Positions 8,386-56,187 of a stretch of DNA of 64,000 nt are shown in pieces; position 1 is the stretch's first letter; each line of letters starts with the position of its first letter. This stretch comes from Pseudovirgaria hyperparasitica (lineage: Eukaryota). The stretch is from NCBI GenBank assembly GCA_010093815.1, contig ML996572.1; one strand, written 5' to 3'. The notes below the pieces were generated by a model, which was not told the origin of the DNA, made no database searches, and was given only the letters and a program-made list of their open reading frames with translations. A program made the position numbers and the translations under genes.

Positions 8386-8401
8386 TGGGTAGTAATTCGA
8401 A

Positions 8402-24332: not shown

Positions 24333-24863
24333 CCATGGCGGCCTTAGGTATCGTAATACCCTAGTATACGCTAGATATGCCCCTACTAGTACGGTAGAAA
24401 CGGCTATATAGCGACATTAATATAGATAGCTAGACACCTATCTAAAATATAGAAACTAACTAAGGGTGCGAAGCGCTATAGAAAACCTAGACTAAGGGGA
24501 CCCTAAGAGGGGAGACCCTCCTAGATAAAATCGAATACTAGGTAATACGTATAGAGAGGGACGCTAAGGAGAGAAAGAAGACCCTGTTAGGACGGGAACT
24601 ATAATAGACCTATATAGACCATTCTAATCCATGTAGCCACGTAGTGGCTAGAGCTAGGTTAAGTTAGCTAAGTTAAGCGAGGTTACTATATAAGTAGACC
24701 ATATAAACCGATTCCTACTTATTAGGAATTAACCTTATATAAGAGTAAGATTACTCTATAAATATATTCCTATATCTCTCTATGAACTATTAGACTACTA
24801 TCCTACGTCTTTACTCTTTATATTTTAATTCCTCTCTATATAGTATAATAGTAGCTTATAGAG

Positions 24864-26246
24864 ATGGCTTCTACTACGCGCTATAATACCCGTGGTACTA
24901 CCTTATATAAGAGACTCTCTCTAAATCTAAACGAAGAGAATAGTCTCCCTACGACCACCTCTACTAATAAGTATACTCTATAGACTATTATACTAATAAC
25001 TAGTACGGTATTCTATATAACTATAGAAGATTACCTAGATAATAAGGAAGGAGTCTATTATACTCTATTGCGGTCTAGTTTATACTATACTAGACCCATC
25101 CTTACTATAAGACTAGACCCTATTAACGTTAACGAATTAATTCATTAGAACTAACTAACGTTAACCACGCCTTACGACGACGTATATACTAAGCTATACA
25201 CGGAGAGGTAGCGTTAGGCTTAGCTTAAGTAGTAACTTCGCGAACTCGATAAAGCGCGAGGACAAACCGCTAGACTCGAAGCCGTACTACGCGCTTTAGT
25301 ACTAGTAGTAACTAACCTATACTAATATAGACTAACTTAAGCCGAAATAGTCTAACTAAGTCTACTACTATCCTAGTTACCTTAGCCTAAGAAACTATCT
25401 TACTTCGACGGTAAAACCAGGAGGAGCTTTTATAAATAGACTTACTAGTATAGCCGATTCTTCTACCTATTCATAAACGATAGTAATAAGATTAGGTTTA
25501 TATAGAACTACCTAGACCTAACGCTATCTAAACGTTAGATGGTATATCGAATTAAATACCCTAAGGATACGTATAACTAGGACACGTTTACTAAATTCCT
25601 TCTTTAATACTTCGGTAATAGAGCCGAGCGACGCGAATAGGCTTAGAGCTATATCTTTAAGACTTAATAGCGAGAGAGATAATCCCCGTTATAACTTCTT
25701 AAATACCTCCGACCTCTTTAGAGAGAAGCTAAGAAAGATTATATAGTTTAATAATACGACGACTTTAAAAGGTCCCTTAACCCGAGCGTAAAGGAATACA
25801 TCGACCTTATAACGTCTATCTCTACTAACCTTTAGGCACTCGCGAATCTCGTAGAACGATATTAGTATATAATGAATAACTAACGTCGTATAGGTATATA
25901 ACTATCTCTATTAATCTAATCCGATGCGAAATCGTCTAAAGAGGACCGGTTTAGTAATAGATCGCGCGGAATACCTCGTGGGTACTACCACTCTACGAAC
26001 TCGAGAAGACGAGACCCGTACCGCGGATCTTTCTACTAGTTAATATATTAAGACGCGAGAAACGACTCGTATAAACGACCTAAAGTTACCTACTATACCT
26101 ATGGTAGAATAGGCTATATAGTACCCGAGTACCGCTTAGGGAAACCACCGAATACTAATATAGATACTAAGTTAGTTATATACTATAAGTGCTAGTAGCT
26201 AGGACATATCGCGCCTAACTATCTAGTATATAATATAAAAAACTAA
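24864..26246 (+). pseudogene. gag: B1 gag
   Basis: ATG at 24864; de-RIPed knuckles CYTCGRIGHIVPEC (~26091) and CYKCQQLGHIAPNC (~26181); ends A-AAA-AAC-TAA. Confidence 0.8.
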
Positions 26247-29200
26247 CTATCTATAAGGAACCCTCGCGACTTATAGGCGTAACTAAAATAGAGGGATAAC
26301 TAGCTAACTAGTATATCGAACTATAGGCTAGGCCTATCAAGGTCCCTCGTGGATAATATTAGACCGTAATACTTAATAGCGGTTTAGCTACTAACGTTAT
26401 ATCAACTTAACGAGCACAAGAACTTAATATTAATATTTAAGTACTAATAGATACTACCTTCTATAGTATCGACAGTCCTATTAAATCATAGGGTACCTAT
26501 ACTATTAAATACAGTATCTAGGATAGCGGGGGGAAGTGGAAACCCTACTACTTAACCTTTATCGTGGTAGATAGTCCCTTTAACATGATCCTTAGTATAC
26601 TATAGCTCGAAAAATATAACCCGAAACTAGACTTTATCTAGAAAACAGCTGGCTAGCGCATATACCCACTATAATAGAACCTAGTATAGCTAGTCGACGA
26701 CGAATAATTCTAGAAGGACTATAAAAAGGTAATCTCCGCTATCTACGTCCTCTTACTTACTTAAAATAGAGAGCTTAGTATTAAAGTAGACGAAAACCTA
26801 CTATATTAGTATAAAATATACTAATATATCGCGTTAGCAATCAACTCGTCCGAATTACCTTAATACTAATCTACTAACCTTACTATTAACCTCGAAGACG
26901 GTTAATAACCCCTACACGGACCTATCTACCCTCTATTAGAACCCGAGCTATAGGTCCTCCGAGAATATATCGAAAAGAACCTTACGCGAGGATAGATTAG
27001 GCCTAGTATATCCCTAGCCGGAGCTCTAATCCTCTTTATAAAGAAGAAGGATAGAAGTCTCTATCTATATATCGACTACCGTAGCCTAAATAACATTACG
27101 CGAAAGAATCATTACCTACTACCTCTTATCTCCGAGTCTATTAATAGACTAGAGCGCGTGAAGATCTTTACTAAGCTCGATCTACGCGACGTCTACTACC
27201 GCCTATATATTAAGAAGGGCGATAAGTAGAAAACGGCGTTTAGGACCCGTTATAGATACTTTAAGTATATAGTAGTCCCTTCTAGACTAACTAACATACT
27301 AGGAACCTTCTAAGCGTATATTAATAACGCGCTAGTAGGTCTACTTAACACGACGTGCATCGTATACCTTAATAATATCCTTATCTTCTCTAATAATAAA
27401 GAAGAATATATCTAGCACGTACGCGTAGTCCTAGATAGGCTAGAAAAACATAAGCTATATATTAAGCTATCTAAATATAAGTTCCACTAGGACTATATTA
27501 ACTTCCTTGGCTTCGTTATTACTAATTAAGGTATAACTATAGAAAGGGATAGAGTTACTACTATTATAGACTAGCCTAAACCAAAATTAGTTCGAGATAT
27601 ACATGTCTTTATTAGATTCGCTAATTACTACCGAAAATTCGTTAAGCATTTCTTCCGGCTAGTAGTACTACTTAACGCGCGTACTACTACTATAGATTCG
27701 TCTATTACGGTCCACGGTAGATAGAAATAGCGTAATATTAAATTATAGTCTATAGAATTATTAGAAGGCGAAAGGGCCTCCTTCGAGAAAATCAAAGAGG
27801 CATTTATAACTACTCTATTACTAGTGCACTTCGACCTAACTAAACCTATCCGCGTTAAAACTAACGCGTTAGGATTTATAATCTTAGGTATTCTCTCCTA
27901 GCCTAGACTAACTAAGTCTAAAAAGGTCTAATAGTATCTAGTTACGTTCTTCTTACGCAAAATAGTCGATATTAAGACTAGATATACTATCTATAACCAA
28001 GAGCTACTAGTAATAGTAGAGTCGTTTAAATAGTGGCGATATTATCTTAAAGATACCATATATAACATCGAGTTACTAACTAATTACTATAACTTAAAGG
28101 GGTTTATAAGCACGACGGTTTTAAACCGTCAATAGGTCCGATAGACTAAGTAGCTTACAAACTTTTACTTTATAATCTACTATTAACCTAGAAGTATAAA
28201 CCTAGCTAATAGAATATTAAGAAGACCTAACTATAAAGAAGGCGCCTAGAATTATAGTAGCTATAGGGTTCTAGAGTAGCTATAGGCCTAACTCTTAAGG
28301 ACGAGGTTAGATTTTAAGTTATTAGGCGATTAGCGAGATGCTAACGTCGATGCTAGTAATCGAATCTCTAAGACTAAAGCTAGTAACTAAAGACGCGGTA
28401 CTAAAGTCCCTAGTAGGCCGTTTATTAGCGCTATCGGGAAGGGCGATAATGCCCGGCGTAAATATCTAATTAACCTTATCTAGTTAATCGTGGATCTATA
28501 GAAGATAGACCCGATAGTTTTAAAGTTACGTAAAATATAGTAAGATAGGTTATTACGGACTAAAGTAGACTATAAGTAGACCTTTATGGACGGCTTACTT
28601 TACTATAATAGAAAGTACTATATACTAATAGATAACACGCAATTTAACGTAGTTAGCCGATACTATAACGCTAACCTAGTAGGATACTTTGGGTATATAC
28701 GTACCCTAAGCTTAATTCGTTAGTACTATTTTTAGGAAGATATACCTAAGTACGTTAAAGAATAGATAGCTACTTATCCGATTTATTAAAGAACGAAGGC
28801 CCCTAGGCATAAGCTATATAGGAATTTATAGCCTCTTTTAGCCCCCCTCTTTATATAGGAAGACATTACTATAGACTTTATAGTTAACTTATCTCTAAGC
28901 GAGATACTTAGAATAAGTTATAATTCTATTCTTATTATCGTGGATAGACTTATAAAGATGTCTAGGTACATCCCGGTATAGAAGACGATTATATCTAAAG
29001 AACTAGCGTAGGTGTTCTAGAACGAGATTATTAAGGTCTATAGTATACTAAAAAGGATCGTTATAGACCGAGGAAGTACCTTCACGTCTAAATTCTAGAC
29101 GTTAACCTAAAAAATAGTAAGTATAAATAGAAACATGTCTATAGTATTTTATCCTTAGACGGATAGCTAGATAGAGCGATAGAACTAGACGCTTAAGGCC

Positions 29201-30060
29201 TACCTACGCGCATTCTATAATTTCGAGTAGGATAACTAGGCCTCCCTACTAAGCATAGTAGAGTTCGTATATAATAATAGTCGTTATAGTACGATAGATA
29301 TTATACCTTTCTAGGCGAACCTCGGACGTAGTCTAAGGATAGGTTTTAAGCCTTAGACGGTCTAATTTAATCGAATAATAGACGTGAACGTCCACGCTTA
29401 GAAATTAGTAATTAAAATCTTTAAAACCGTACGTAACTATCGCGCTATAATCTAATAAGTAAATAACTCGTATATAAAGTACTATAATAGATTAGCTAAG
29501 GATTAGACGTACGAGGAGGGCGATAAGGTCCTTCTTAACGTCTATAATATATGAATATCATAAGTAAATAAGAAGCTCGATTATAAAATAGCTAGTCCCT
29601 TCCGAATTAAACGTCGTATTAGTATAAGAGTCTATAAGCTTAACTTAGAAAGTAATATAAGAATCTATAACGTGTTCCACGTCTTACTACTCGAAAGATT
29701 TTAACCTAACATGTATGGCCGTATGAACGTGTAGTTACACTCTATTATACTCTAAGATAGACTAGACGTATTCGAAGTAGACTATATTATCGAATATAGG
29801 ATTAATAAAGACGGTGTTTAGAAATATAGAATCCGTTAGACGGACTATACTAAGGACGAGGACACCTAGGAACTAGTAGTATATATCTTAAGTTCTATAA
29901 TGGCTGCGTATAAGTAAAAGATATAGAATAGCGTATTATTAATGTAAGTATAGTAACGTCGCGGTCGTTGTAAAAAGAAGAAGGATACTATAGAGAACGA
30001 AGTACTAAACTAGGAAATCTAGACGCGCACTAGGAAAACTCTATATAGTAGCCCTATAAT
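26237..30060 (+). pseudogene. pol: B1 pol
   Basis: RT motifs [22 protein letters not shown] and YLNN (RIPed YLDD, ~27365); integrase; chromodomain. Ends approximate. Confidence 0.88.
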
Positions 30061-30551
30061 TTAAGTATTATACGGTTACTAGACGCAAAGAAAGCGTAAA
30101 TAACTATTTTAGAAACGCGACGCGACACACTATAATAGAATAACATAGAAGAGTCTAGAATGGACTAATATAGACTATTATACACGAGAAAAACATAGGA
30201 CTAAGAACCTAAAAAAAGGTACCCTACTATAGAATTAAACTCTTAATACGAAATATAAAAGGTTAGAGTACCCGAACTAATAACTACTAGGCCACTAGTT
30301 CGGGTACTCTAATGGAATTCATAGAGATAAACTAATTTATATATGGTGCCTATACTTAGGTAACTTAAGGAAAATCAGAATATAGAAACCGATAGTTATA
30401 AGCTAAGTAAGCGTATATATAATATCATTAAGTTAAGAATTAAATTACTAGAAACTAGCTAATAGGTATCTAAATGGTCTAAAAAGGACTAAAATAGATA
30501 AAAGCCAGGTAAATAGAGCCGGCGTACACCACCTATAGTAGATCTAGAATA

Positions 30552-30640
30552 TATAGAGCTAGATATAGAGCTAATATATAGAGCTAGACCATAGAGCTAA
30601 TATATAGAGCTAAACCCATAGAGCTAGAACCATAGAGCTA
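30552..30640. repeat. Tandem ~13-bp ATAGAGCTA-core repeat, 7 units in B1 (4 in B2 at 39217-39265)
   Basis: gagct cores at 30556, 30568, 30581, 30594, 30607, 30621 and 30635. Confidence 0.85.
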
Positions 30641-31950
30641 CTCCTCTATCTTATTATCCGTCCTAACCTCTAGCATAGTCCTCTCTAACCGCACGATATA
30701 GCGGCGGAGGATAACGACCTTAGTCTCTAGAGTAATAACCTAATCCGTTAGAGTCTAGAGGGAAGAGCCTTAAGCGCCGGAGCGTAGCGACTAGGTCTAA
30801 AGTTAGCTAATATAATCTAGAATAATCTAGAAGGGAATATATACCCTCTTATAAGGCGACTTAGAGGGAGAAATAGTAGACCTCTTATAAGATCTATTAG
30901 TAGCGCGAGACGGATAGGGGGGGATAGAGCGAATCCTCTCTATAGCCTCTATGGCTAGAATAGACTCTCTAGAATAGGTAGTCTAGGCGCTAGGGATCTC
31001 GCGGCGGCTAGAAAAATTAATAGGTATTAAAAATAATTAACGTGCTTATAACTTATACTTTAATAACCTCTAGGAAGAGCTTATAGCGCTCCCTAAACTC
31101 CCTCTATATAGTAGGTAGGCGGCTATAAGGACCCCTAAGGGTCTCGCGGACGCGAAGGTCGTTATATATATCTTATATATATATAGGAACCTAAGAATAT
31201 ATTAGCGCGGACTACTTTAGATTATACTAGATTAAGATAGCCTATTATACTTACCTATAGATAAGTCTTACTAGTTACGGTATAGTGGCGGTAGCGGGTA
31301 GATAGAGTAAAGATAGGGCGTATAGGCCCGTCGCAGTTAGTAGAGTAGTAGCTAATACTAGAGTTAGAGCGAAAGAGATATTTAGAGCCGGCCGTATAGC
31401 CCTTAATATACTTATAGTATATTAAACTATAGTTCGCTGTTTTCCTATAGCGTAAACCGTAACTACGTTTAGTATCCTCGGCGACCTAGGCCTTATTATT
31501 AGTAGGCTAGGGTTTAGAGCGAATATTAAGGTCCTAAAAGAACCTAGAGTAACTAAATTAGTCTATGTTAGACCGGAAGGAAGAGCGGCGAGACGGCGGC
31601 GTAGGTAAGTATAAGGGCTCGCGATTATCATCTATAATAAGATCTTCTTTATCCTCTAGAGGAGGTAGAGTAGGCGGTATACGCTTTAGAGCGAGAGGGG
31701 AACCTATAACCACTTTATCTATAAGTTTAGTACTAGGATTACCTAGATTAGAGTAACTAGTAGCTATATTAGTGGTAGAGGCAGTAGTAGTAGTAGCCCT
31801 AACTACTCTCTTCTCCGACTTAGAGCGTGCCTTCATACTACTATAATAGGTAGACTTCTTAGCCGGCGTAGCCGGGGAGAAGGTAATATCTTTAGAGCGA
31901 GTCTTATAAGAGGAGGAGGTAGGCTTAGAGATAGGACTAGTATTAGATAT
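30638..31950 (-). pseudogene. Antisense accessory gene of Gypsy family B, copy in B1
   Basis: Includes ORF 31558-31836; canonical intron 31191-31254 (GTAAGT...GCTAAT...TTAG on minus); colinear with the B2 copy. Confidence 0.78.
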
Positions 31951-34900
31951 CTATATATATACGTTAGCTAGAGATCTAAGGAAGGAATATTCGTCTACCC
32001 TTAACGGCGATTAACGAAGCTAAATTAGTAACTATAATAACGCGAATAGGTTATATTAGACCGGTTCTAATAAGAATAGACTACTATAGACCCTTCTAAA
32101 CCTAAACTAGAGAAGATAGTATATAAATTAACGACTTACCTTAAGAGCGAGGTAGATATACTAGAGAATAAAATTAAAGGCGAGTGAAGCTAAATATATA
32201 CTCGACTAAAGTAGCGATTACGTGTTCTAGGTAGTAGCTATAAAGTAAGGGATGAGCGCGTGTATAAACTAGTAAAAGTAAACTAGAATCTCGAGTTTAC
32301 CTATATTAAGGATAGTTATAACGTTATAGGAACTTAGTTATAGATATATAGATATACGATAGATTATAGAGACTTAGAATTATATATACTTAAGTGCTTT
32401 AGGGCGAAGCATAAAAAGAAGAAGGATATTATTAGGACGGGAACTATAATAGACCTATATAGACTATTCTAATCTATGTAGCCACGTAGTGGCTAGAGCT
32501 AGGTTAAGTTAGCTAAGTTAAGCGAGGTTACTATATAAGTGGACCGTATAAACCGATTCCTACTCGTTAGGAATTAACCTTGTATAAGAGTAAGATTACT
32601 CTATAAATACATTCCTATGTCTCTCTATAAACTGTTAGACTACTATCCCACGTCTTTACTCTTTATAGACCCTCCTTTATATATTCTAGGACCTTATCCG
32701 GAACCTAAGAGGAATTACAGAGGAAGAAAGGAAGTCGCCACGAGAGGAACCTAGTAGTAGGCTCGACCGAATAGAAGCTAGCCTACGGAGAATCTAGGAA
32801 GAGCTATCCTAAGGTAAGCGCCCTAATACGTAGGCTTAGATTATAGTAATACCCGGAGCCACCGTACTAAGAACTACTAGAACCATAGATAGAGTATATA
32901 GTATACGTATTGTAATCTAGGATAAGGACACGCTAGCATAGGTCTAATAGGCATCCCTAAAGGAAATTATAAATAAGATTAACGAATAGAAAGGAATGTA
33001 GTTAAGTATCATGGCTACTAAAGTTACGCTAGATAGGGTAGTACTTACTACTATAACGAATACTACGTAGTAAAACATCTCGCGAGATCCGAACGCGATA
33101 GATAGTATCTTCCCTAGCGCGTCTATTAGGGTAGCTATATACCCGATTATAGTATACGTAGTACCTATGCGGGGATAGGCTATTAGAGCGGAGGATATTA
33201 CGCGTATAGAATAATCCAACACGTGAAAATACCTAGGGATTAAGATTGTAAAAGCGTGGTAGAAGAACCTATAGGCGATTAAGAGGACGGCGAAAAAACA
33301 CTCTACTATAATTATAGAGCTCTAAGACCCCGCCCTTATATAATATATTATATAGAAGGGATTCCTAATAGAAGGAGAGCTTCTTATAGCCGAGCCATGG
33401 GATAGAGCATAGGTAATAATATAGTGCTTTAACTGTTAAGGGTATAGACATACTATATAAAGGTACTTATAGAAGACTAAGTGCGGATAGTACCGTGGGG
33501 ACCACGCTATCTAAGAGTACTCTTATAAACCGCGAGGAGACGGACTAAGAAATAGGGATATAGTATAGTATTTAAACTACGACGGGAAACACCCGTCGTA
33601 GTCGTTAACGTGTATAAAACGTAAATAGGTTATAGAATATATTCGCACGATAAAAGCGAGAGGCGCGAGATAGTTATAGAATATAACATCTACCACGAGC
33701 CCTTCCTTTATAATACCCCTAACCTCCCCTCTAGAAGGTAGTTAGGTGGGATAGTAGACTATCCCGAAGACGATAGGACGACTAAAAGATATAGTTAAAG
33801 CCGCTACCGCGCGAGGATAGTCGCGCCTCTAAGGAATAAGTATATAGGTATATATACTCTCTAGTATCTAATAAGGGACTAGAATATACTCCGAATTATA
33901 TAGGTAAACATATAATATAAAAGAGAGAACTAGGCGACGCTCCTCGAAGAGACCGGGGCTATAATACTCGCTATCTAGGAACCCTATAAATACTACTAGA
34001 CGAGTAAACCAACCATATACCCCGGATACCATACTATATACCCTCTAGGACTAGAAAGACGAGTCCTCTTCCACATTTATAGGTTAATACTACTCTTATT
34101 ATAGTCGTATACTAAGCGCGATAACCTTAGGATAATACTACACCTATAAATAGATATAGGCCCCCTATATATATATAATATATATAACTAATAACGTATA
34201 CTTATACTAGACGAGATGCTCGAGGGTACTACGGAACTAGGGTAACACATCCTTCTAGGAGACTTTAACCTCTACTACTAATAGTAGAGAGGCCTAGCCG
34301 TGGTTAGGGAAGAACTTAGAGTAAGGGAACTACGCACCCGCTACCACGACTTCCTATACCTACTTACACCTATAGAATAAGTTATATAGAAAAAACATAA
34401 ATAGAACAAAGACGGGTCCACGCTTAACCTTACCTTCGCTACGGAGTATATTAGTTACCGGATCTAATACTACCGCCTAGGCTAGGTATAGACGGATTCC
34501 GACTATAAATATATAGAAACTATAATAAACGTGTATACCCCGAATAAATAACGGGGACGATGGATATAGAAGGATACTAACTAGGAAAAGTACCTGAAGA
34601 ACCTAGAATCAGCGATCCTAGATCCCTCTATAGTCGATATATCTAATAACCTAGCTATAGACCAGGCCGTATAGATACTCCTATAAATATACTAGAATAC
34701 GAGAAATAAACACGTACTATACCGAATATACCGGCCCCCGGAAGTAAAGGGGATTCCTTAAGTACGGGAAAGTAGATAAGACGCCCGAAGACTATATAGA
34801 CGTATATACCGTATAAGAATACCCGAGTTATAGGAAGAATAGAAGGAAGCGATATGATAACGCGATAAAGTCCTCTATAATAAAAGGCGTAAATAGTAGC

Positions 34901-37189
34901 GTATAATTACTAGTTAATAGATATAATATGTAATAGGGCTATGGCGTATGGCGAAATGGGCTAAGGGTATAGATACTCCGATACCCCCGCTACTTATACC
35001 TCCCCTAATATATTAGGGGAGAACATACTCCACGGGCCTTAAGAAAACTAAGGCCCTATAGGAGGCTATATTCCCTCTCCCGGAACTAGTAGACCTATTA
35101 GACGTTTACGGCGCTAAATATCTACACGCGGTAGACATCCCCGAAGAAGTTACGGAGGAGGATATACTTAATATTATTAAGACACTCCTAAATGATAAAG
35201 CACCCGGACTAGATGGAATTCTAAATTAATACCTAAAAAGTACTATAAAAGTAACCCTACCACTTATTACTCGTATATTCTAAGCATGCGTCACGTAGGG
35301 GTACCACCCCTAGAGCTTCCGAGTCGCCTATACTATTATACTCCCGAAACTAGAAAAGAGCCCTAACTCCCTAAAGGAATAGAGACTAATCGCCCTTCTC
35401 TTCTACCTAGGTAAGATACTAGAGGCTATAATAGCGAAGAAGATAAGTACCGCGGTATAGGAATATAATCTCCTCCCTCCGAACCAGAAGGTAAAGATAG
35501 ATAGCTCCCTAATAATAGCTATCTAATATATTATTAAAGTCGTCTAGGCCGTATAGAAATAGAGACGGGTAGTATCGCTCCTCTCCCTCGATATGGCCGG
35601 AGCGTTTAATAAGATAAACTATATAAGACTTATTTATAACCTCCGGATAAGACGAATACTAGAATGGATTACACGCTTTATATAGTTATTCCTTATAGGA
35701 AGAATAACTTAGATACATATCCCTAGATACTAGAGCGAATATAAAGAGACGGTATACGGCATCCTATAAGGGAGTACTATCTCTCTAATTCTATTCCTCT
35801 TCTTTACGGTAGACCTTCTTTAAGAAATGAAGTATATAGAGGTAGTCGGATACGCCGATAATATATACCTTCTAGCCATTAATAATAATACTAACCGAAC
35901 GTATAGACGACTAGAATAGGACTATAAGAGGTGCCTCTAGTAGGTAAAACGCCACGGAGTAAAGTTCGCCCTAGAGAAATACTAGCTCATGCACTTTATT
36001 AATCGTTAAGGGAAATAGGTAACTAGGGAAGGCGAACAACGCCCCTAAATCGACGTATTTAACGAACTACTAGTATAAAGCATACGCGCGCTCGGAGTTA
36101 TACTAGATGGTAAGCTTAAATAGGGACCATAAGTGGTATACGCCGTCTCTAGGGCCCTCTAGGTAGAAGCCACTATATAATGGATTATAGCCTCCACGTA
36201 GGGAACCGCCTAGAATAAGGCACGCTAGCTATATATATCTATAGTACGACCCGCCTTTACGTACGGACACGAGTACTAGTATACGGCCCTTATATAGACT
36301 AGGTAAATAAAGCTCGAATCCATATAGAACCGTATACTCCGTCTTATATTAGGCGTATATAAAGCTACTAATACGGTGCTACTACGACACGAGATAGACG
36401 TCCTAAGTATATATAACTTCTACTAGATATAGAGGGTAGTATACTTTACTAAATAATAAGTATAGGAACGCATAGGAAATGTAGAATATACTTTCGCCGC
36501 GATATGTATATAAATTAGTATATATTACCGCGCACTCCTATATATAGGCCGGAATCGAATATGGTATAGGTGCTTAATAGAAGCCGACTCTAGCTAAGTA
36601 GTATAAGAAGTCCGAGATAACCCGGACGCTCTTCTAGACCGGTAGAGCCTTTAAGAACTTATAAAAAATATATAGTCGTGGACTTAAGATAAGTAGAAAG
36701 AGGCACTCCGTACCTACTAGACCTTCTAGTAGAATAGGTATCTAGAGTAGATTCGAGGGCTATAGAAGGAACCGAGTAAATAGATATATAAAGGGCTAAT
36801 GAAAGCCTAAGTATCTATACTTATCTAAGCCCGAACGGGCGCTATGGAACTTCTATACTATATCTATAAGAGAGGCGTTCCCGATACCTCTCTATAGTAT
36901 AAGGCGTACGGCCGGAGAGGTATAATACGCTACTATCTAGCTATATACCCTAACCTCTATATATAACGGTAATAGCTTATCTACGTTACGAAGACTTTAG
37001 ATGTCGTATAATAGCTTAATAAGTACCCTAAGAACGTCTCCCGATAGATGCTTATATATCTACTACTCCTCTAGTACTAGTAGACCCGGAAATATATACT
37101 AGAAGAGACCCGGTATACGCCGGTAGTAACCCGATATATACCGGAAGAACCCCGGGAGAACCCCGATTATTAGTTAAGGGCAGCCCTTA

Positions 37190-40100
37190 TGTAAAGAGTA
37201 AAGACGTAGGATAGTAGTCTAACAGTTCATAGAGAGACATAGGAATGTATTTATAGAGTAATCTCACTCTTATACGAGGTTAATTCCTAACGAGTAGGAA
37301 TTAGTTTATACGGTCCACTTATATAGTAACCTCGCTTAACTTAGCTAACTTAATCTAGCTCTGGCTACTACGTGGCTATATAGATTAGAATAGTCTATAT
37401 AGATCTATTATAGTTCCCGTCCTAATAATATTCTTCTTCTTTTTATGCTTCGCCCCGAAGCACTTAAGTATATATAATCCTAAGTCTCTATAATCTATCG
37501 TGTATCTATATATCCGTAACTAAGTTCCTATAACGTTATAACCATTCTTAATATAGGTAAACTCGAGATTCTAGTTCACTTTTATTAGTTTATGTACGCG
37601 CTTATCCCTTACTTCGTGGCTACTACCTAGGACACGTAATCGCTACTTTAGTTAAGCATATATTTAGCTTCGCTCGCCTTTAATTTTATTCTCTAGTATA
37701 TCTACTTCGCTCTTAAGGTAAGTCATTAATTCATATACTATCTTCCCTAGTTTAGGTTTAGAAGGGTCTATAGTGGTCTATTCTTATTAGAACCGGTCCT
37801 ATGTAACCTATTCGTATTATTACGGTCACTGATTTAGCTTCGTTAATCGCCGTTAAGGGTAGACGAATATTCCTTCCTTAGATCTCTAGCTAATATATAT
37901 ATATAGATATCTAATACTAGTTCTATCTCTAAGCCTACCTCCTCCTCTCGTAAGACTCGCTCTAAAGGTATCGCCTCCTCCCCGGCCACGCCAGCTAAGA
38001 AGTCTACCTATTACGGTAGTATAAAGGCGCGCTCTAAGTCGGAGAAGAGAGTAGCTAGGGCTACTACTACTACTGCCTCTACTACTAATATGGCTACTAG
38101 TTACTCTAATCTAGGTAATCCTAGTACTAAACTTATGGATAAAGTGGTTATAGGTTCCCCTCTCGCTCTAAAGCGCACGCTATCTACTCTACCTCCTCTA
38201 GAGAATAAAGAAGATCTCGTTATAGATAATAATCGCGAGCCCTCGCGCTTACCTACGCCGCCGTCTCGCCGCTCTTTCTTCCGGTCTAATATAGACCGAT
38301 TTAGTTGCTCTAGGTCCTTTTAGGACCTTAATATTTACTCTAAACCCTAGCCTACTAATAATAAGGCCTAGGTCGCTAAGGATACTAAATATAGTCGCGG
38401 TTTACGCTATAGGAAAACGGCGAACTATAGTTCGATATACTATAAGTATATTAAGAGCTATATAGCCGGCTCTAAATATCTCTTTCGCTCTAACTCTAGT
38501 ATTAGCTACTACTCTACTAACCGTAACGGGCCTATATACCCTATCTTTACTCTACCTACCCGCTACCGCCGCTATACCGTAACTAGTAAGACTTATCTAT
38601 AGATAAGTATAATAGACTATCTTAATCTAGTATAATCTAAAGTGGTCCGCGTTAATATATTCTTAGGTTCCTATGCGTATATAAGATATATATAACGACC
38701 TTCGCGTCCGCGAGACCCTTAGGGGTCCTTATAGCCGCCTACCTACTATATAGAGGGAGTTTAGGGAGCGCTATAAGCTCTTTCTAGAGGTTATTAAAGT
38801 ATAAGTTACGAGTACGTTAATTATTTTTAACATCTATTAATTTTTCTAGCCGCCGCGAGATCCCTAACGCCTAGGCTACCTATTCTAGAGAGTCTATTCT
38901 AGCTATAGAGGCCGTAGAGAGGATTCGCTCTATCCCCCCCTATCCGTCTCGCGTTACTAACGGATCTTATAAGAGGTCTACTATTTCTCCCTCTAAGTCG
39001 CCTCGTAAGAGGGTATATATTCCCTTCTAGATTATTCTAGATTATATTAGCTAACTTTAGACCTAGTCGCTACGCTCCGGCGCTTAAGGCTCTTCCCTCT
39101 AGGCTCTAATGGATCGGGTTATTACTCTAGAGGCTAAGGTTATCGTCCTCCGCCGCTATATCGTGTAGTTAGAGAGAACTATACTAGAGGTTAGGACGGA
39201 TAATAAGATAGAGGAGTAGCTCTATGGTTCTAGCTCTGTGTGTTAGCTCTATGCCTGGCTCTATATATTCTAGATCTGCTATAGGTGGTGCGCGCCGGCT
39301 CTGTTTACCTAGCTTTTATCCGTTTTAGTCCTTTTTGGACCGTTTAGATATCTATTAGCCAGTTTCTAGTAATTTAATTCTTAACTTAACGATATTATGT
39401 GTACGCTCGCTTAGCTTATGACTATCGGTTTCTATATTCTAATTTTCCTTGAGTTATCTAAGTGTGGGCACCGTATATAAATTAGTTTATCTCTATAAAT
39501 TCTATTAGAGTATCTAAACTAGTAGCCTAGTAGTTATCGGTTCGGGTACTCTAACCTTTTATATTTCGTATTAAGAGTTTAATTCTATGGTGGGGTACCT
39601 TTTTTTAGGTTCTTAGTCCTATGTTTTTCTCGTGTATAATGGTCCGTGTTAGTCCATTCTAGACTCTTCTATGTTATTCTATTATAGTATATCGCGTCGC
39701 GTTCCTAAAATAGTTGTTTACGCTTTCTTCGTGTCTAGTAACCGTATAATACTTAAATTATAGGGCTACTATATAGAGTTTTCCTAGTGCGCGTCTAGAT
39801 TTCCTAGTTTAGTACTTCGTTCTCTACGGTATCCTTCTTCTTTTTACGACGACCGCGACGTCGCTATACTTATATTAATAATACGCTATTCTATATCTTT
39901 TACTTATACGTAGCTATTATAGAACTTAAGATGTATACCACTGGTTCCTAGGTATTCTTATTCTTAGTGTAGTCCTTCTAACGGATTCTATATTTCTAAA
40001 TACCGTCTTTATTAATTCTATGTTTAATAATATGGTCTACTTCGAACACGTCTAGTCTATCTTAGGGTATAATAGAGTGTAACTATACGTTCGTGCGGCC

Positions 40101-43100
40101 ATACACGTTAGGTCGAAATCTTTTAAGTAGTAAGACGTGGAATACCTTATGGATTCTTATATTACTTTCTAAGTCGAGCTCATAGGCTCTTATACTAATG
40201 CGACGTTTGATTCGGAAGGGACTAGCCATTTTATAATCGAGCTTCTTGTTTACTCGTGATGTTCGTATATTGTGGACATTAAGAAGGACCTTATCGCCCT
40301 CCTCATACGTCTAATCCTTAGTTAACCTATTATAGTACTTTATATATAAGTCGTTTACTTATTAGATTATAGCGCGATAGTTACGTGCGGTTTTAAAGAT
40401 TTTAATCGCTAATTCCTAAGCGTGGACGTTCACGTCTATTATTTAATTAAATTAGACCGTCTAAGGCTTAAAACCTATCCTTAGACTACGTCCAAGGTTC
40501 ACCTAGAAAGGTATAATACCTATCATACTATAACGACTATTATTATATATGAACTCTACTATACTTAGTAGGGAGGCCTAGTCGTCCTACTCGAAATTAT
40601 AGAATACGCGTAGGTAGGCCTCGAGCGTCTAGTTCTATCGCTCTATCTAGCTATCCGTCTAAGGATGAAATACTATAGATATATTCCTATTTATACTTAC
40701 TATTTCGTAGAATAACGTCTAGAATTTAGACGTGAAGGTACTTCCTCGGTCTATAACGATCCTTTTTAGTATACTATGGACCTTAATAATCTTATTCTAG
40801 AATACCTATGCTAGTTCTTTGGATGTAATCGTCTTCTATACCGGGATATACCTAGATATCTTTATAAGTCTATCCACGATAATAAGAATAGAATTATAAC
40901 TTATCCTAAGTATCTTACTTAGAGGTAAGTTAACTATAAAGTCTATAGTAACGTCTTCCTATATAAAGAGGGGGGCTGAAAGAGGCTGTAAATTCCTATA
41001 TGGCTTGTGCCTAGGGGCCTTCGTTCTTTGATAAATCGGATAAGTAGCTATCTATTCTTCGATATACTTAGGTATATCTTCCTAAAAATAGTACTAATAA
41101 ATTAAGCTTAGGGTACGTATATATCTAAAGTGTCCTACTAGGTTAGCGTTATAGTATCGGCTAACTATATTAAATCGCGCGTTATCTATCGGTATATAGT
41201 ACTTTCTATTATAGTAAAGTAAGCCGTCTACGAAGGTCTACTTATAGTCTACTTTAGTCTATAATAATCTATCTTACTATATTTTACGTAACTTTAAAAC
41301 TATCGGGTCTATCTTCTATAGATCCACGATTAACTAGGTGAGGTTAATTAGATATTCACGCCGGGTATTATCGCCCTTCCCGATAGCGCTAATAAACGGC
41401 CTACTAGGGACTTCGGTACCGCGTCTTTAGTTACCGGCTTCGGTCTTAGAGATTCGATTACTGGTATCGACGTTAGTATCTCGCTAATCGCCTAATAACT
41501 TAAAATCTAACCTCGTCCTTAAGAGTTGGGCCTATAGCTACTCTAGGACCCTATAGCTACTATAATCCTAGGCGCTTTCTTTATAGTTAGGTCTTCTTAA
41601 TATTCTATTAGCTAGGTTTATACTTCTAGGTTAATAGTAGATTATAAAGTAAAAGTTTATAAGCTACTTAGCCTATCGGACCTATTAATAGTTTAAAACT
41701 ATTATACTTATAAACCCCTTTAAGTTATAGTAATTAGTTAGTAACTCGACGTTATATATGGTACCTTTAAGATAATATCACCACTATTTAAACGACTCTA
41801 CTATTACTAGTAGCTCTTGGTTATAGATAGTATATCTAGTCTTAACATCAACTATTTTGCGTGAGAAGAACGTAACTAGATACTATTAGACCTTTTTAGA
41901 CTTAGTTAGTCTAGGCTAGGAGAGAATGCCTAAGATTATAAATCCTAACGCGTCGGTTTCGACGTGGATAGGTTTAGTCGGGTTAAAGTACACTAGTAAT
42001 AGGGTAGTTATAAATGCCTCTTTGATTTTCTCGAAGGAGGCCCTTTCGCCTTCTAATAATTCTATAGACTATAATTTAATATTATACTGTTTCTATCTAC
42101 CACGGACCGTAATAGATGAATCTATAGTAGTAGTACGCGCGTTAAGCGGTGCTACTAGCCGGGAGAAATACTTAATAAATTTTTAGTAGTAATTAGTGAA
42201 TCCGATAAAGACACGTATATCTCGAACTAATTTTAGTTTAGACTAGTCTACGATAGTAGCGACTCTATCCCTTTCTATAGTTATATCTTAATTAGTAATA
42301 ATAAAGCTAAGGAAGTTAATATGGTCCTAGTGGAACTCGCATTTAGATAGCTTAATATATAGCTTATATTTTTCTAGCCTATCTAGGACTACGCGTACGT
42401 GCTAGATGTATTCTTCTTTATTATTAGAGAAGATAAGAATGTTATTAAGGTATATAATGCACGTCGTGTCGAGTAGGCCTACTAGCGTGTTATTAATATA
42501 CGCTTAGAAGGTTCCTAGCGCGTTAGTTAGTCTAAAAGGGACCACTATATACTCGAAGTGTCTATAACGGGTTCTAAACGCCGTTTTCTACTTATCGCCC
42601 TTCTTAATACGTAGGCGGTAGTAGACGTCGCGTAGATCGAGCTTAGTAAAGATCTTCGCGCGCCCTAGTCTATTAATAGACTTAGAGATAAGAGGTAGTA
42701 GGTAATAATTCTTTTATATAATATTATTTAGGCTACGGTAGTCGATATATAGACGGAGACTCCTATTCTTCTTCTTTATAAAGAGGATTAGAGCTCCGGC
42801 TAGGGATATACTAGGCCTAATCTATCCTCGCGTAAGGTTCTTTTCGATATATTCTCGGAGGACCTATAGCTCGGGTTCTAATAGAGGGTAGATAGGTCCG
42901 TGTAGGGGTTATTAACCGTCTTTAAGGTTAATAGTAAGGTCGGTAGGTTAGTATTAAGGTAATTTAGACGAGTCGATTACTAACGCGATATATTAGTATA
43001 TTTTATACTAATATAGTAGGTTTTCGTCTACTTTAATACTAAGCTCTCTATTTTAAGTAAGTAAGAGGACGTAGATAGCGGAGATTACCTTTTCGTAGTC

Positions 43101-45232
43101 CTTCTAGAATTATTCATTATCGACTAGCTATACTAGGTTCTATTATAGTGGGTACATGCGCTAGCTAGCTGTTTTCTAGATAAAGTCTAGTTTCGGGTTA
43201 TATTTTTCGAGCTATAGTATACCGAGGATTATATTAAAGGGACTGTCTACTACGATGAAGGTTAAGTAGTAGGGTTTCTACTTCCCCCCGCTATCCTAGA
43301 TGCCGTATTTAATAGTATAGATACCCTACGATTTAATAGGACTATTAATACTATAGAAGGTAGCACCTATTAGTACTTAAATATCGACGTTAAGTTCTCG
43401 TGCTCGTTAAGTCGATATAACGTTAGTAGCTAAACCGCTATTAAGTATTACGGTCTAATATTATCCACGAGAGACCTCGATAGGCCTAGCCTATAGTTTA
43501 ATATACTAGTTAGCTAGTTATCCCTCTATTTTAGTTGCGTCTATAAGTCGCGAGGGTTCCTTATAGGTAGTTAGTTTTTTATATTATATACCGGGTAGTT
43601 AGGCGCGATGTATCCTAGCTACTAGCACTTATAGCATGTAACTAACTTAGTATCTATATTAGTATTTAGTGGTTTCCCTAAGCGGTACTCGGGTACTATA
43701 TAGCCTATCCTACTATAGGTGTAGTAGGTGACTTTAGATCGTTTATATAAGTCGTTTCTCGTGTCTTAATATATTAACTAGTGGAAAGATCCGCGGTACG
43801 GGCCTCGTCTTCTCGAGTTCATGGAGTAGTAGCGCCCACGAGATGTTCCGCGCGATCTATTACTAAACTAGTCCTCTTTAGACGATTTTATATTAGATTA
43901 GATTAATGGGGATAGTCGTGCGCCTATATAACGTTGGTTATTTATTATATGCTAATGTCGTTCTACGAGATTCGCGAGTGCCTAAAGGTTAATAGAGATA
44001 GATATTATAAGGTCGATGCGTTTCTTTACGCTCGGGTTAAGAGACCTTTTAAAGTCGTCGTATTATTAAACCATGCGATCTTCCTTAGCTTCTCTCTAAA
44101 GAGGTCGGAGGTATTTAAGGAGTTATAATAGGGATTATCTCTCTCGCTATTAAGTCTTAAAGATATAGCTCTAAGCCTATTCGCGTCGCTCGGCTCTATC
44201 GCCGAAGTATTAAAGAAGGAATTCGGTAAACATGTCCTAGTTATACGCATCCTTAGGGTGTTTAATTTAATATGCTATCTAACGTTTAGATGGTATTAGG
44301 TCTAGGTAGTTCTATACGAACCTAATCTTATTACTATCATTCGTGAATAGGTAGAAGAATCGGCTATACTAGTAAGCCTATTCATGAAAGCTTCTCCTGG
44401 TTTTACCGTTAAAGTAAGGTAGTTTCTTAGGCTAAGGTAACTAGGATAGTAATAGACTTAGTTAGACTATTTCGGCTTAAGTTAATCTATATTAGTATAG
44501 ATTAGTTATTACTAGTACTAAAGCGCGTAGTGCGGCTTCGAGTCTAGCGGTTCGTCCTCGCGCTTTATTAAGTTTATAAAGTTACTACTTAAGCTAAGCC
44601 TAACGCTACCTCTCCGCGTATAGCTTAGTATATATATTATTATAAGGCGTGGTTAACGTTAGTTAGTTCTAACGAATTAATTTATTAACGTTAATAGGGT
44701 GTGGTCTTATAGTAAGAATGGGTCTAGTATGGTATGAACTAGACCGCGATAGAGTATGATAGACTCCTTCCTTATTATCTAGGTAATCTTCCACGGTTAT
44801 ACGGAATACCGTACTAGTTATTAGTGCGATAGTCTATAGGGTGTACTTATCGGTGGAGGTGGTCGTAGAGAGACTATTCTCTTCGTTTAGATTTAGAGAG
44901 AGTCTCTTATATAAGGTAGTGCTACGGGTATTATAGCGCGTAGTAGGAGCTATCTCTATAAGCTACCGTCGTGCTATATAGAGAGGAATTAAAATATAAA
45001 GAGTAAAGACGTAGGATAGTAGTCTAATAGTTTATAGAGAGATATAGGAATGTATTTATAGAGTAATCTTACTCTTATACGAGGTTAATTCCTAACGAGT
45101 AGGAATCGGTTTGTACGGTCTACTTATATAGTGACCTCGCTTAACTTAGCTAACTCAACCTAGCTCTGGCTACTACGTGGCTGCATGGATTAGAATGGTC
45201 TATATAGGTCCGTTATGGTTCCTGTCCTAACA
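37190..45232 (-). mobile_element. Gypsy chromovirus copy B2, full length, inserted inside the L3 3' palindrome
   Basis: LTRs at 37190-37427 and 44995-45232; TSD CCTTA at 37185-37189 and 45233-45237; reverse complement of B1. Confidence 0.97.
37907..39219 (+). pseudogene. Antisense accessory gene of family B in B2 (exons 37907-38602, 38667-38800, 38850-39012, 39067-39219; ~380 aa)
   Basis: Long frame including ORF 38090-38323; six-Tyr(Cys) cluster; introns of 64, 49 and 54 nt give in-frame joins. Start ATG and two donors are RIP-altered in this copy. Confidence 0.75.
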
Positions 45233-48200
45233 CCTTAACTAATAACCTCCGCATCTATACGTACTATCTAAGGGTAAAATAATAGTAATATAGGCTATAG
45301 GCTAATAGGCGTACCCTATAGCTATATACTTAAGACGAAATAGAGGTTTAACGAGATATAGTTATAGATATAAGGAAGTTTTTCCCTATGGGGTTTCTTC
45401 TTATATAGTAGCTTAGACTAGAGGAGGCATAGGCCTATAGAGTACTACTCTACCTAGTTATATAATATTATTATTATTATTATTATACTAATAGACTAAC
45501 TAATATTTTTATAATACCTACTAAAGTAGTAGACATAATAAATCATATCGTATAACTAGTATATATATCTTAGTATAGTATAAGCTAGGTTTCTATAAGA
45601 AGCCTTATATAACTAGATAGGCTTTATCAATTAGCTCCCCCTAGGCGTTTATCTTAATATTAAATATCTAGCGGTAGCCGACTAGCTTAGTAGGCTATAT
45701 ATTAGAGAGATTAACTTCGGTCTATAAGCTATTATTATAATATATCTAAAGCTCTTTCTTAATAGTAAGTAACTAAAATAGCTACTCGATATAAGCTTAG
45801 ATCTATTTTAAGTTCTAAGGAATAAATCGCTTAATAAAGGCGTATATAGACTTAGGAATATTAATAGCCGAGAGTCTAGTAGATTTAATAAGGCGTTAGG
45901 TAGGCTTATAGAGACGGCCTAATCGGGTTATACTCTAAGAACCTAATATATTAGAGAAATATAGGTTAGTTTAAGACGTATTAGGATTAGACTTTAGAGC
46001 CTAATAAATAGATATTAAATATAGCTATATTTTCTAAAAACGTATAGCTAGTCTTAGGGTAGAAGGAATTATATTATCTTAGGAAGGCTCCGTATCTTAA
46101 GATTCTTAGGGAAGAGTAGTAGTTTCTATAATAACTAAAGTAGAAGAGGAATCTTTTAAAGCCTCTAGAAGGGTACTAAATTTAATATTCTAAGTCTTAA
46201 TAATACGTAATTAGTTAGAAATATAGTATCTAAAGATCTTAGAGGATTTCGTATACCTAATAAAAATACCTTTCTTAGCTTAATATAGAAGTTTTATACT
46301 AGCCTTACGTGCTTCTATAGGGATATAAATAAAATATTTAATTCTAAAGGGCTAAAGGTACTTAATTAAGGGCTTTATACCGAAGAGTATATAAAAGGGT
46401 ATATCTTTATATAGGGTAGAATATAGCGCAATATTCTTAAGGAAAGTCGAAGTATAGACTAACTCTAGCTAAAGCTTTAATATTAAGTTATCTATAATTT
46501 AGACGTAAGTAGACTTAATAATAGTTCGATTAAACCGCTTAGTAAGTCTATTTAACTTATAACTATATAGAGGGGAGACTTAGTACGTAATGCCCTCGGA
46601 ATAGAAAAAGACTTAAAGCTTTTTAGCTTTATACTTACTACTACTATTAGAGATAAAGATAGTGGCTTCTATATAATATTAACGCTTAATATACGTAATA
46701 TATTTAATAATTACTAAGGTAGTCTCCGATTTATACTTTAGAAAGCGGATCTAAGTAAATTATATAAATTCGTTAATAAAGGTAATAAAATACTAGAACC
46801 CTTAAAGCGACGTATATAAAAACTTTTCTAATAAGTTAGAATAAATTCGTTTAAAAGAATAAGCGGCTTTAGAAAGAAGGCGAGTAGGTTTCTAATACGT
46901 GGACTTCGAAAGTAAGTAGATAGTATATATAAAGTCTACTAGCTTTAGAGGAATATTATAAGCGTCTTTATATATTTATTATAGGTAAGAAATCGAATAA
47001 TAACTAATAGCTTTATAGAATATTCTATAGGACGCGAAATATATAAACTTCTAATAGTATATAGCACCTCGAGTCTAAATCCGTAATAGGCCCTTTTTAA
47101 AGCGCATCTAGAGCGCCTTATTACCGTTAGAGAGGATAATAAAAAGATTATTACCCTTTATATAGAGCTTATTTCCTTGCTTTCTAATATATAGCTAACT
47201 AAATAGGCGAGTATTATAGAGGCGATTACTATAAAGAACGTTAGTAAGTTATATCGCGTATAAGGAGCTATTAGATAGAGTACTATTAAGTAAGATAGTT
47301 CTAATAGTATAAATTAGTATCTAGAAGTTCCCTATAATAGTAATTAAACTACTAGAGCGAGAATAATCTAAAGTTTCGAAGTTATCTAGAATACTATATA
47401 TATACTTACTAGTACTAGTATTAAAAACCTAGTTATTATTATTTAAGAAGGTATTAATACTAGCTAGAGAGTATATCTTATTAATTACAATATATAGGGG
47501 AGTTAATATACTTATATTTCGAGACCTTTTACCGTTTATATTTATTATAGTAATAAATATATAGACTATATTATTAGACTTAGAATCTAAGCTAATATAG
47601 TAAGCCTTATATACCTTCTATTCTAATGCCTTTATACGTTTAGAAGACGAGACATTCTAGTCCTTCTCTTTTAATACCTTTAGCTTCCGATAATTCTAAT
47701 AATTATAGCCTTTTAAGTTAAAACCACGCTTCTTATACTAGCTATACTTAAGGACTTTATCGGAGGAGTCTTAGGTAGTAGTTAATGGCTTCTTTTTATG
47801 CCCCTGGTTATTAGCTTAGAACCTATAAGAGGCGGGATGAAGGTTAATACTATATTTCTCGCCTAAGTCTATTATCTTAGACTCGAGATTGACGAAACGG
47901 GTAAGATTACGTATACTAAGGTTATTAATAATATAATCTATTATATTAGGAAGGAAGGTAAGGAGGAAAGAGCCTTTAACTTCTTCTAATTTAAAAATTA
48001 GAGCTATAGACTTAGCTATAGTATAAGAAGAATTTTTATACTATTTAGCTATACGGACCTAAAGCTAGTAAAACTTATTAAGATATTCGTGAATATCCTT
48101 ACTATTCTAATAGTAGAGAGAAGTAATTATATAGAATAAGTATATAGAGGTATTACCCGTATTATAATTAAAGCGATCGGATAGGTAACGCTATACCTCT

Positions 48201-48373
48201 ACTAAAGTATTATATATTATAACTTCTATAATAAGATTAGGGTATACTATAGAGAGAAGTATAATTATAGTCTTATTATCCTTATTATCCTATACGTTCT
48301 TATATTAATCTATTCCTAGTCGTGGCTCTTTACTAAGGACTATCTAGTATAATTCTATATATTATAATATAAT

Positions 48374-55756: not shown

Positions 55757-56099
55757 ATAATAATCTATAAGGATTTCTACTTAGAAAAGTTATTACTATA
55801 AGAGATAAGCTTAGAGAGGACTAATAGATTAAGCTTAAAGTTAAAAGCTATCTAGTAAGGCGCTTACGGAGGGCTACGTAATTCTAGAAGGGTTTTAGAT
55901 ATAGTAGTATCTAATATATATATAGTAGGAGGAGTAGAAGTATATAAGGCTTATTTATTAGGCTTAGTAAATACGGGAAGTAGTAGGTATACTTTAAAAA
56001 GAACGGAGGATAGAATAAAGTCTATGAATAGCTGGATATAGATAGTATAGTAAGAATTATAATAGAAAAACGATAGATAATTAATATAGCGGAGCTATA

Positions 56100-56187
56100 G
56101 GGATTATAATCTATTAAAGTTCTAAAGAAGTTATATTATCTAAGTCCTTAAGTCTAAGAGAGACGACTTAAGTATTCTACGCTAATA
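56100..56187 (-). repeat. Putative Copia PBS (56100-56112) and short or truncated 5' LTR (56112-56187)
   Basis: Minus strand agattataatccc resembles the GGTTATGAGCCC-type site seen after fungal Copia LTRs; tatt...aata could be RIPed TGTT...AACA; RIP signature ends here. Confidence 0.4.

Follow-up and report, generated by a model that had tools for sequence, protein, structure and literature searches.

The window analyzed here is a stretch of 64,000 nucleotides (nt) from contig ML996572.1 of Pseudovirgaria hyperparasitica (GenBank assembly GCA_010093815.1), and its subject is a candidate gene on the plus strand at 37907-39219, within a transposable element that we call B2. B2 is a complete copy of a Ty3/gypsy element of the chromodomain type, gypsy family B, which has a second copy, B1, in the same window (Table 1). 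It spans 8.04 kb and is bounded by long terminal repeats (LTRs) of 238 nt that start with TG (TA in the mutated 3′ LTR) and end with CA. In one minus-strand frame of B2, Pfam models recognized a reverse transcriptase (RVT_1, E = 5.6e-22), RNase H by two models (RT_RNaseH_2, E = 3.5e-16, and another at 1.4e-11), Integrase_H2C2 (E = 1e-4) and a Tf2-type integrase SH3 domain (SH3_Tf2-1, E = 5.1e-15 to 9.4e-15). At the end of pol there is in addition a match to Chromo (E = 0.0018-0.0034) that, at 18.6 bits, lies under the Pfam cutoff of 25.1. The candidate gene lies inside this complete element, between pol and the 3′ LTR and antisense to gag-pol, and the feature is carried by both family B copies in the window (2/2). 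The LTRs, the target-site duplication, the polypurine tract and the pol domains all place it where an original prediction, made from the letters of the window, had put an antisense spliced gene.

Table 1. Features of family B and of the candidate gene, with three-base periodicity and codon-position composition of the proposed gene segments.
Feature	Position	Strand	Description	Period-3 chi-square (p)	Composition score (empirical P)
B2, complete element, gypsy family B	37190-45232	-	LTR pair; inverted arms versus B1		
B1, second copy of family B	24572-32667	+	Repeat comparison with B2		
Target-site duplication of B2	37185-37189 and 45233-45237		5 bp, TAAGG, both flanks		
3′ LTR of B2	37190-37427	-			
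Polypurine tract of B2	37431-37444	-	AAAAAGAAGAAGAA on the minus strand; 3 bases upstream of the 3′ LTR		
End of pol in B2	39927-40298	-	SH3 domain 40116-40298; chromodomain-like stretch 39927-40046		
Post-pol region, pol to 3′ LTR	37428-39926		2.5 kb; contains candidate gene 37907-39219		
Same feature in copy B1	30638-31950	-			
Flank	37426-37906			5.8 (0.45)	
Exon 1	37907-38602	+	232 codons; best-supported coding remnant; Ser/Thr/Lys/Arg/Pro-rich product		
Exon 1, part	37907-38320			51 (3e-9)	
Exon 1, part	38321-38602			32 (1e-5)	
Exon 1, part	38372-38602		Predicted frame		6.9 (0.016)
Intron 1	38603-38666	+	64 nt; GC 0.27; ATAAGT...GTTAAT...TTAG in B2; GTAAGT...GCTAAT...TTAG in B1 (31254-31191)		
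Exon 2	38667-38800	+	134 nt; GC 0.44; 2 in-frame stops	10.9 (0.09)	-6.5 (0.69)
Intron 2	38801-38849	+	49 nt; GC 0.20; ATAAGT...TTAAC...CTAG		
Exon 3	38850-39012	+	Frame +1; GC 0.51; 1 stop; codon-position composition as in exon 1	17.1 (0.009)	11.3 in predicted frame; other frames -20.9 and -28.6 (0.0033)
Intron 3	39013-39066	+	GC 0.28; GCTAAC at 39050; not supported		
Exon 4	39067-39219	+	GC 0.48; not supported; stops equal across frames, 3-6	7.7 (0.26)	-9.0 (0.80)
Flank	39220-39900			3.8 (0.70)	
Family A, second gypsy family, copies	14117-21600; near 1237-8694 and 48367-55821	- (14117-21600)			

Both copies lie in DNA of GC content 0.28-0.43, which makes up the first 56-58 kb of the window; the last 6 kb are at about 0.5. 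Relative to expectation, CpA and TpG are depleted in the window (0.19 and 0.24) and TpA is enriched (1.66). B1 and B2 align over 8097 columns with 91.5% identity, 625 transitions, 6 transversions and 54 gap columns. Transition-dominated divergence together with depletion of CpA and TpG is the mark that repeat-induced point mutation (RIP) leaves in the DNA of a filamentous ascomycete. A C kept in one copy was T in the other at 195 of 264 CpA, 334 of 958 CpG, 82 of 694 CpC and 14 of 1344 CpT sites, and the many double differences of CG against TA between the copies imply that CpG was often converted fully to TpA. Base-by-base reading was limited to these two copies. As a family-wide check, contigs of two DNA runs, X1 (9372) and X2 (3580), were aligned to the region, and the best 40 of 232 variant places were considered. 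Contig depth from these runs fills 30 of 30 bins over 37400-40400, which implies that the post-pol region belongs to the family as a whole. Judging by the same contigs, family B would number hundreds of copies in the full genome.

The proposed first exon, 37907-38602, reads in one frame as originally described, but that description omitted three internal TAG stops, at codons 139, 148 and 155, which are present in both copies; a further TAG is codon 232. Stops in this interval number four in B2 and five in B1 in frame +2, compared to 9 and 10 in frame -2, 10 and 12 in +0, 16 and 19 in -1, 42 and 41 in +1, and 48 and 49 in -0. The stop-free run of 138 codons at 37907-38320 is the second longest in any of the six frames over the AT-rich 56 kb of the window, and its B1 counterpart, 130 codons at 31561-31950, is the fourth longest in the same 56 kb. 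The 696 bases were simulated with first-order and second-order Markov models, 1000 times each; a frame with four or fewer stops was seen in 0/1000 of each kind (the mean minimum was 15-16), and an open run of at least 138 codons likewise in 0/1000 of each, the longest simulated runs being 112-115 codons.

Periodicity of three bases was measured as a phase-by-nucleotide chi-square in 370 windows of 600 nt over the 56 kb, a signal that RIP cannot create. The windows over the feature are the top 2 of 370, with 61.2 in B1 (window 31351) and 60.5 in B2, against a median of 11 and a 95th percentile of 26; the maximum among windows in the pol gene of B2 is 27. A codon-position composition model trained on 37907-38320 only was then applied to the remaining segments. 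Its null distribution took the best of three frames in each of about 2700 windows, which covered the remaining AT-rich DNA on both strands. Significant scores were obtained for exon 3 and for the terminal part of exon 1, each in its predicted frame. A sliding phase track followed frame +2 to about 38600, turned weakly to +0 and clearly to +1 across 38825-39080. Taken together, the signals in exons 1 and 3 show a coding-type signal offset exactly as the first two proposed introns require. The frames cannot be joined without exon 2, which shows no coding signal of its own.

The splice motifs were assessed on both strands of the 56 kb, that is 112 kb. A strict pattern (GTAAGT, 15-60 nt, RCTAAY, 3-22 nt, YAG) has one match in all of this sequence, and it is intron 1 in B1, at 31254; the B1 intron of the original prediction, GTAAGT...GCTAAT...TTAG at 31254-31191, is thus present and is the sole strict match. 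It starts directly after the last codon of the long frame (CTA TAG/GTAAGT). Position 38603 is G in 82% and 100% of depth in X1 and X2, and 38652 is C in 100%, majorities which indicate that the intact motif of intron 1 is ancestral. In B1 and in the family majority, intron 1 has the form of a filamentous-fungus intron, with a GTAAGT-type donor, a CTAAY branch 3-22 nt before YAG and a length within 40-90 nt. A relaxed pattern (RTAAGT...CTAAY...YAG) has 27 matches, one of which is intron 2, at 38801, and another of which lies inside exon 1, at 38442, without support from the frames. Intron 3 fits a loose pattern with 295 matches, or 2.6 per kb, which is the chance level, and the frame of exon 3 read without intron 3 stops at TAG 39028-39030.

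The four proposed exons have GC contents of 0.43, 0.44, 0.51 and 0.48 compared to 0.27, 0.20 and 0.28 for the introns, and AT-rich dips comparable to the proposed introns also occur inside exon 1. The second and third introns (38801-38849 and 39013-39066) do exist as stretches, and the four pieces join in frame over 1146 nt as had been proposed, ending ...ALMDRVITLEAKVIVLRRYIV, a stop and then LERTILEV, but intron 3 and exon 4 are at chance. In B2 the four-exon model holds 11 stops: 10 internal ones, including TAG 38600, which the model reads as Gln, and the terminal TAG at 39217. We consider intron 1 well supported, intron 2 plausible and intron 3 unsupported. Two other gene structures were tried. 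A single 247-nt intron at 38603-38849 was rejected, as it would place exon 3 in the wrong frame. An extra in-frame intron around the clustered stops at 38321-38371 may be considered tentatively; the place coincides with an AT-rich dip ending ACTAAT...CCTAG that has no acceptable donor.

The locus holds a real, degraded coding remnant, probably that of an accessory gene in antisense orientation, of whose introns one is good and another plausible. As the best explanation, to which we assign a probability of roughly 0.55, we propose a RIP-destroyed antisense accessory gene of the kind termed aORF-3R in plant elements, present in all family B copies between pol and the 3′ LTR. Several observations weigh against it. 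The reading frame lacks a start codon (ATA at 37907 in B1 and B2) and intron 2 begins with ATAAGT in B1 as well as in B2, so that position 38801, where a GT was predicted to be restored, is A in each. Of the 10 internal stops and the terminal one, a single stop is resolved by the other copy (39166, CGG in B1). Exons 2 (P = 0.69) and 4 (P = 0.80) have no coding composition, and almost no Gln or Trp occurs in 214 residues, which would be unusual for an ancestral protein. A (CTA)9 run at 38061-38087 adds to the periodicity, the codon pattern is nearly symmetric between strands, and a codon-position model trained on pol, tried as a means of deciding the strand, separated neither frames nor strands. 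Finally, no search found relatives, though the damaged pol is still recognized.

The periodicity and the splice motifs also bear on whether the stretch was ever a gene. Decayed low-complexity DNA made of ACT/CTA, TCT and CCT runs, with splice-like motifs as by-products of TA-rich RIP sequence, would account for the (CTA)9 run, for the abundance of relaxed and loose intron motifs, one of them inside a supposed exon, and for the lack of homologues; post-pol regions of plant Retand elements often contain tandem arrays, according to the accessible part of PMC11963269. However, masking all trinucleotide runs of at least three units (33 bases) lowered the chi-square of 37907-38320 from 51 to 32 and left it significant (p = 1.6e-5). 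Strong periodicity is also present in 38321-38602, in which Tandem Repeats Finder reports one 19-nt row of period 10 (38311-38329) and no period-3 array, and it recurs 250 nt downstream in another frame. The strict intron motif, unique in 112 kb, moreover falls exactly at the end of the frame. We regard an origin without any gene as unlikely.

The left edge of the remnant and the searches for relatives address a second alternative, that a plus-strand fragment of a host gene, with its introns, was captured in reverse by the founder of the family and has no role in the element. The original prediction took the start as a mutated ATG at 37907. Directly in front of the ATA found there in both copies is an acceptor-like site, GCTAAT (GCTAAC in B1) followed after 9 nt by TAG, which implies that the left edge may be an intron-exon boundary instead, as would be expected of a fragment cut within an intron. 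A consensus AAG/GTAAGT at 37718 in both copies suggests more exon-intron structure upstream; an upstream exon in frame +1 at 37715-37895 was among the rejected candidates, with non-significant scores of 0-2 bits. PMC7264820 considers gene transduction among the ways in which antisense open reading frames (ORFs) might have arisen.

A conserved host gene should nevertheless have relatives. That Pfam still recognizes the RIP-damaged pol of B2 provides a positive control for searches with damaged translations. The 138-residue open run gave nothing at E ≤ 0.01 in a word-indexed search of 5.8 billion proteins, and the 231-residue read-through, with X at stops, had 0 matches at E ≤ 0.001 in a HMMER search of 1.84 billion representative proteins. 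The ESM Atlas gave no usable match. Pfam searches at E ≤ 1 with the exon pieces and the six frames of 37426-40310 returned nothing other than the end of pol and a sub-threshold zipper hint; the Transposase_28 or TRP28 domain (PF04195) was found in none of the three plus frames of that interval and in none of the exon pieces. A metagenome locus (L001) was rejected as chance, having in common only the seeded 8-residue word NGPIYPIF between unrelated flanks. The region is also retained in both copies and, by contig depth, in 30 of 30 bins. Passive capture of a host gene appears rather improbable.

The strand of the coding signal was considered separately. The periodic pattern, with position 1 rich in A and position 3 rich in T, is almost self-complementary, so a codon-aligned minus frame also looks open, with the second-lowest stop count (9 in B2, 10 in B1). 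A sense-strand third ORF after pol, env-like or other, of which the plus frame would be the mirror image, might leave such a pattern; minus-strand open runs of 72-74 codons do occur in the region, and the accessible text of PMC7264820 describes sense ORFs after pol in plant elements. The plus frame, however, has half the stops of the minus frame, all in a single frame, whereas the minus-strand open runs fall in two different frames. In the plus reading, C makes up 35% of second codon positions, corresponding to Ser, Thr, Pro and Ala codons, whereas the minus reading would have G at 35% of them, compared to 14-15% in two pol genes. Strict and relaxed intron motifs in the region are confined to the plus strand (0 on the minus strand), and searches with the codon-aligned minus-frame product found no protein relatives and no Pfam family. 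We favor the plus strand by roughly four to one in our judgement, and a sense ORF in this place has little probability.

The original prediction went further and read the end of exon 1 as a cluster of six Cys residues. The six Tyr codons on which this was built (38438, 38447, 38477, 38564, 38573 and 38594; residues 178, 181, 191, 220, 223 and 230) are present with the reported spacing of x2-x9-x28-x2-x6, followed by CTA TAG, but the spacing is at chance. Residues 156-231 hold 14 Tyr codons in 76 residues, compared to 4 in residues 1-155, and two YxxY pairs 10-60 residues apart arose in 59% of 20000 shuffles of this 76-residue stretch. Reversal of RIP was expected to restore Cys at the six sites, yet none of them (0/6) is TGY in B1 or B2. 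The complete model contains 22 codons that read TAY in B1 and B2 alike and another 9 that do so in just one of them; for these 9 the other copy has CGY (Arg) in eight cases and TGC in one (38306, TGC in B2 and TAC in B1).

Codon 38522, CGT in B2 but TGC in B1, demonstrates that a Cys codon in this DNA can be a RIP intermediate between Arg and Tyr, and the CG majority in X1 and X2 at 38390-38391 makes the Tyr codon there an Arg codon in the family. Because TGY mutates faster than CGY, a Cys origin is less likely to show at sites where both copies already read TAY; a rough estimate from per-copy rates is that, of the 22 codons in this shared class, only one or two would descend from TGY. None of the six Tyr sites, nor 37909 or 38801, is among the best 40 of the 232 differences in the X1 and X2 contigs. 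An Arg-rich, basic end of a Ser/Thr/Lys/Pro-rich protein is probably the more coherent reading. More generally, where CpG is also a target of RIP it is unsafe to take TAY back to Cys, since the route from Arg CGY to Tyr TAY runs through Cys or His codons, and the comparison of 37190-45232 with 24572-32667 illustrates this trap for reversing RIP by eye.

The heptad-like helix proposed for the C-terminus did not stand up either. The stretch at 39106 has L, I, V or M at 8 of 8 a/d positions, and such windows abound here: over all six frames of the 56 kb, at least 7 of 8 positions are occupied at 84 loci and all 8 at 9 places, two of which are the feature in B2 and B1. The stretch also holds many off-heptad hydrophobic residues, and Leu, Ile and Val codons are enriched by RIP. 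Profile searches recognized no basic leucine zipper (bZIP) or coiled-coil C-terminus in a supported exon, the sole match being Lzipper-MIP1 (E = 0.099, 13.4 bits against a cutoff of 32.2), far below threshold. Even though its frames join, RIP favors the change from TGY to TAY (TpG at 0.24 of expectation) and codon 38306 and the 39106 stretch fit it, the full four-exon version with a CxxC...CxxC metal-binding cluster and a C-terminal coiled coil is very hard to sustain given the Arg codons opposite eight of nine discordant Tyr codons and an exon 4 that has no coding signal.

A parallel had also been drawn with a gene in the same position in a second gypsy family, family A. The post-pol region of family A, about 1.8 kb (14417-16229), has no periodicity signal (maximum 14.5 against a 95th percentile of 21.9) and no similarity to that of family B; the best six-frame blastp match between the two (E = 0.011) lies outside the candidate frame and was rejected.

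The proposal of an antisense accessory gene gains from comparison with known systems. Plant elements with an antisense ORF located between pol and the 3′ LTR include maize Grande (gene23), rice RIRE2, Silene Retand (TRP28, PF04195) and Phaseolus PvRetro13 (PMC7264820, PMC11963269). These aORF-3R elements resemble family B in having a long region between pol and the 3′ LTR, an antisense ORF (a candidate one in family B) in most copies and no clear protein similarity. Some of their products are nuclear, and short tandem repeats occur in the region, as does a 13-nt array in family B. This array (TAGCTCTATGGTGC-like) lies just past the proposed gene end, at 39217-39253 in B2 and 30627-30560 in B1, where it is 40 bases longer. 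The plant elements belong to non-chromovirus lineages with post-pol regions of 2.9-6.6 kb in the same sources, whereas family B is a chromodomain fungal element with 2.5 kb, and the family B feature has no TRP28 or other Pfam domain. Introns are proposed for the family B gene, whereas the word intron occurs 0 times in the available texts of the two articles. The reviews describe these antisense ORFs as having no known function; from the parallel with accessory and antisense genes of retroviruses, they usually propose that the products act as nuclear regulators.

The fungal element Boty of Botrytis, with gag, RT, IN and CHROMO domains (PMC4227169, in part), carries brtn, an extra gene antisense to gag-pol that is listed among ORFs between pol and the 3′ LTR in section 5 of PMC7264820 and mentioned also in the accessible text of PMC8365987 and PMC4227169. 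On this partial account Boty and family B are alike in being chromodomain Ty3/gypsy elements of filamentous ascomycetes with an extra antisense gene, a candidate one in family B, in that place. They differ in that both readable copies of family B are RIP-killed. The likeness to brtn is one of description, and the large protein collections searched above, in which public fungal proteins should be included, returned no match to the family B product. The original paper on brtn is reportedly Zhao et al. 2011, Virology 417:248. In the literature library that was searched, we found no account of a fungal LTR element whose antisense gene contains introns; whether brtn has any is not known to us.

HBZ of human T-cell leukemia virus type 1 (HTLV-1) and other deltaretroviral antisense genes resemble the candidate in place and orientation, all lying antisense and close to the 3′ end of an element that replicates by reverse transcription. 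The main HBZ mRNA is spliced and its product is a regulatory nuclear protein. In contrast to HBZ, no bZIP or other domain was detected in the family B feature, its heptad stretch lies in the unsupported exon 4, and neither the host nor the lineage of the element is related. PMC7264820 and PMC11963269 mention the antisense genes of HTLV as well as a promoter for antisense transcription within the 3′ LTR.

If the remnant is an antisense accessory gene, the ancestral gene would have had at least two short introns. Its introns would have been kept through retrotransposition because, being antisense, they would place no splice sites in the genomic RNA of the element. Survival of antisense introns and splicing out of sense introns is the logic on which retrotransposition indicator genes are built. 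The product would have comprised about 330 residues or more, rich in Ser, Thr, Lys, Arg and Pro, probably disordered and basic, and the Tyr codons near the end of exon 1 would largely be decayed Arg codons (CGY to TGY or CAY, then TAY). By analogy with aORF-3R and with brtn of Boty, the gene may have been transcribed from its own promoter and may have acted on the life cycle of the element in a nuclear or regulatory role. A more specific version, that family B while active used an antisense gene with introns to make a basic and disordered nuclear protein, an orphan regulator that arose inside a fungal chromovirus and is convergent with aORF-3R and HBZ, is tentative, and we hold it to be less likely than not.

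Both readable copies are dead in this genome, so the direct biological importance of the gene here is small. Its interest lies elsewhere. Most known accessory genes that lie antisense in LTR retrotransposons come from plants, and the literature searched gives one fungal case. Another fungal example, unrelated to the first and still holding its introns, would show that antisense accessory genes have originated repeatedly, and would also illustrate naturally why antisense introns outlast retrotransposition. For the annotation of RIP-degraded isochores, codon periodicity, which RIP does not erase, can expose lost genes.

Family B may vary in structure and in abundance. One X1 contig joins 37446 to 39864 through 16 other letters, with 22 letters on one side, and so skips the 2.4-kb post-pol region; this single contig is a weak hint that a short form of the family, running from the end of pol straight to the polypurine tract, possibly exists. 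Two further runs under the same species label, X3 and X4, whose contigs amount to 23-27 million letters compared to 37-51 million in X1 and X2, contain next to none of family B, which is highly repeated; this is no proof of its absence there. Lineages under one species label may differ greatly in their load of this family.

The surroundings of the two copies consist of other repeats. RIP-degraded repeats give way abruptly to DNA of GC about 0.5 at an isochore boundary at about 56000-58000. Between the inverted family B copies, 32668-37188 on the plus strand holds a RIP-degraded remnant of a non-LTR-type reverse transcriptase (RVT_1, E = 2.6e-13), in which an open run at 35062-35229 ends ...NDKAPGLDGILN; this interval is related, in inverted orientation and with 74% identity, to 11311-14121. 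Between B2 and a family A copy, 45233-48366 on the minus strand (GC 0.28) holds a copia-type pol remnant (SH3_retrovirus, E = 9.6e-9) with strong three-base periodicity of its own (chi-square 30-34 in windows 46951-47701).

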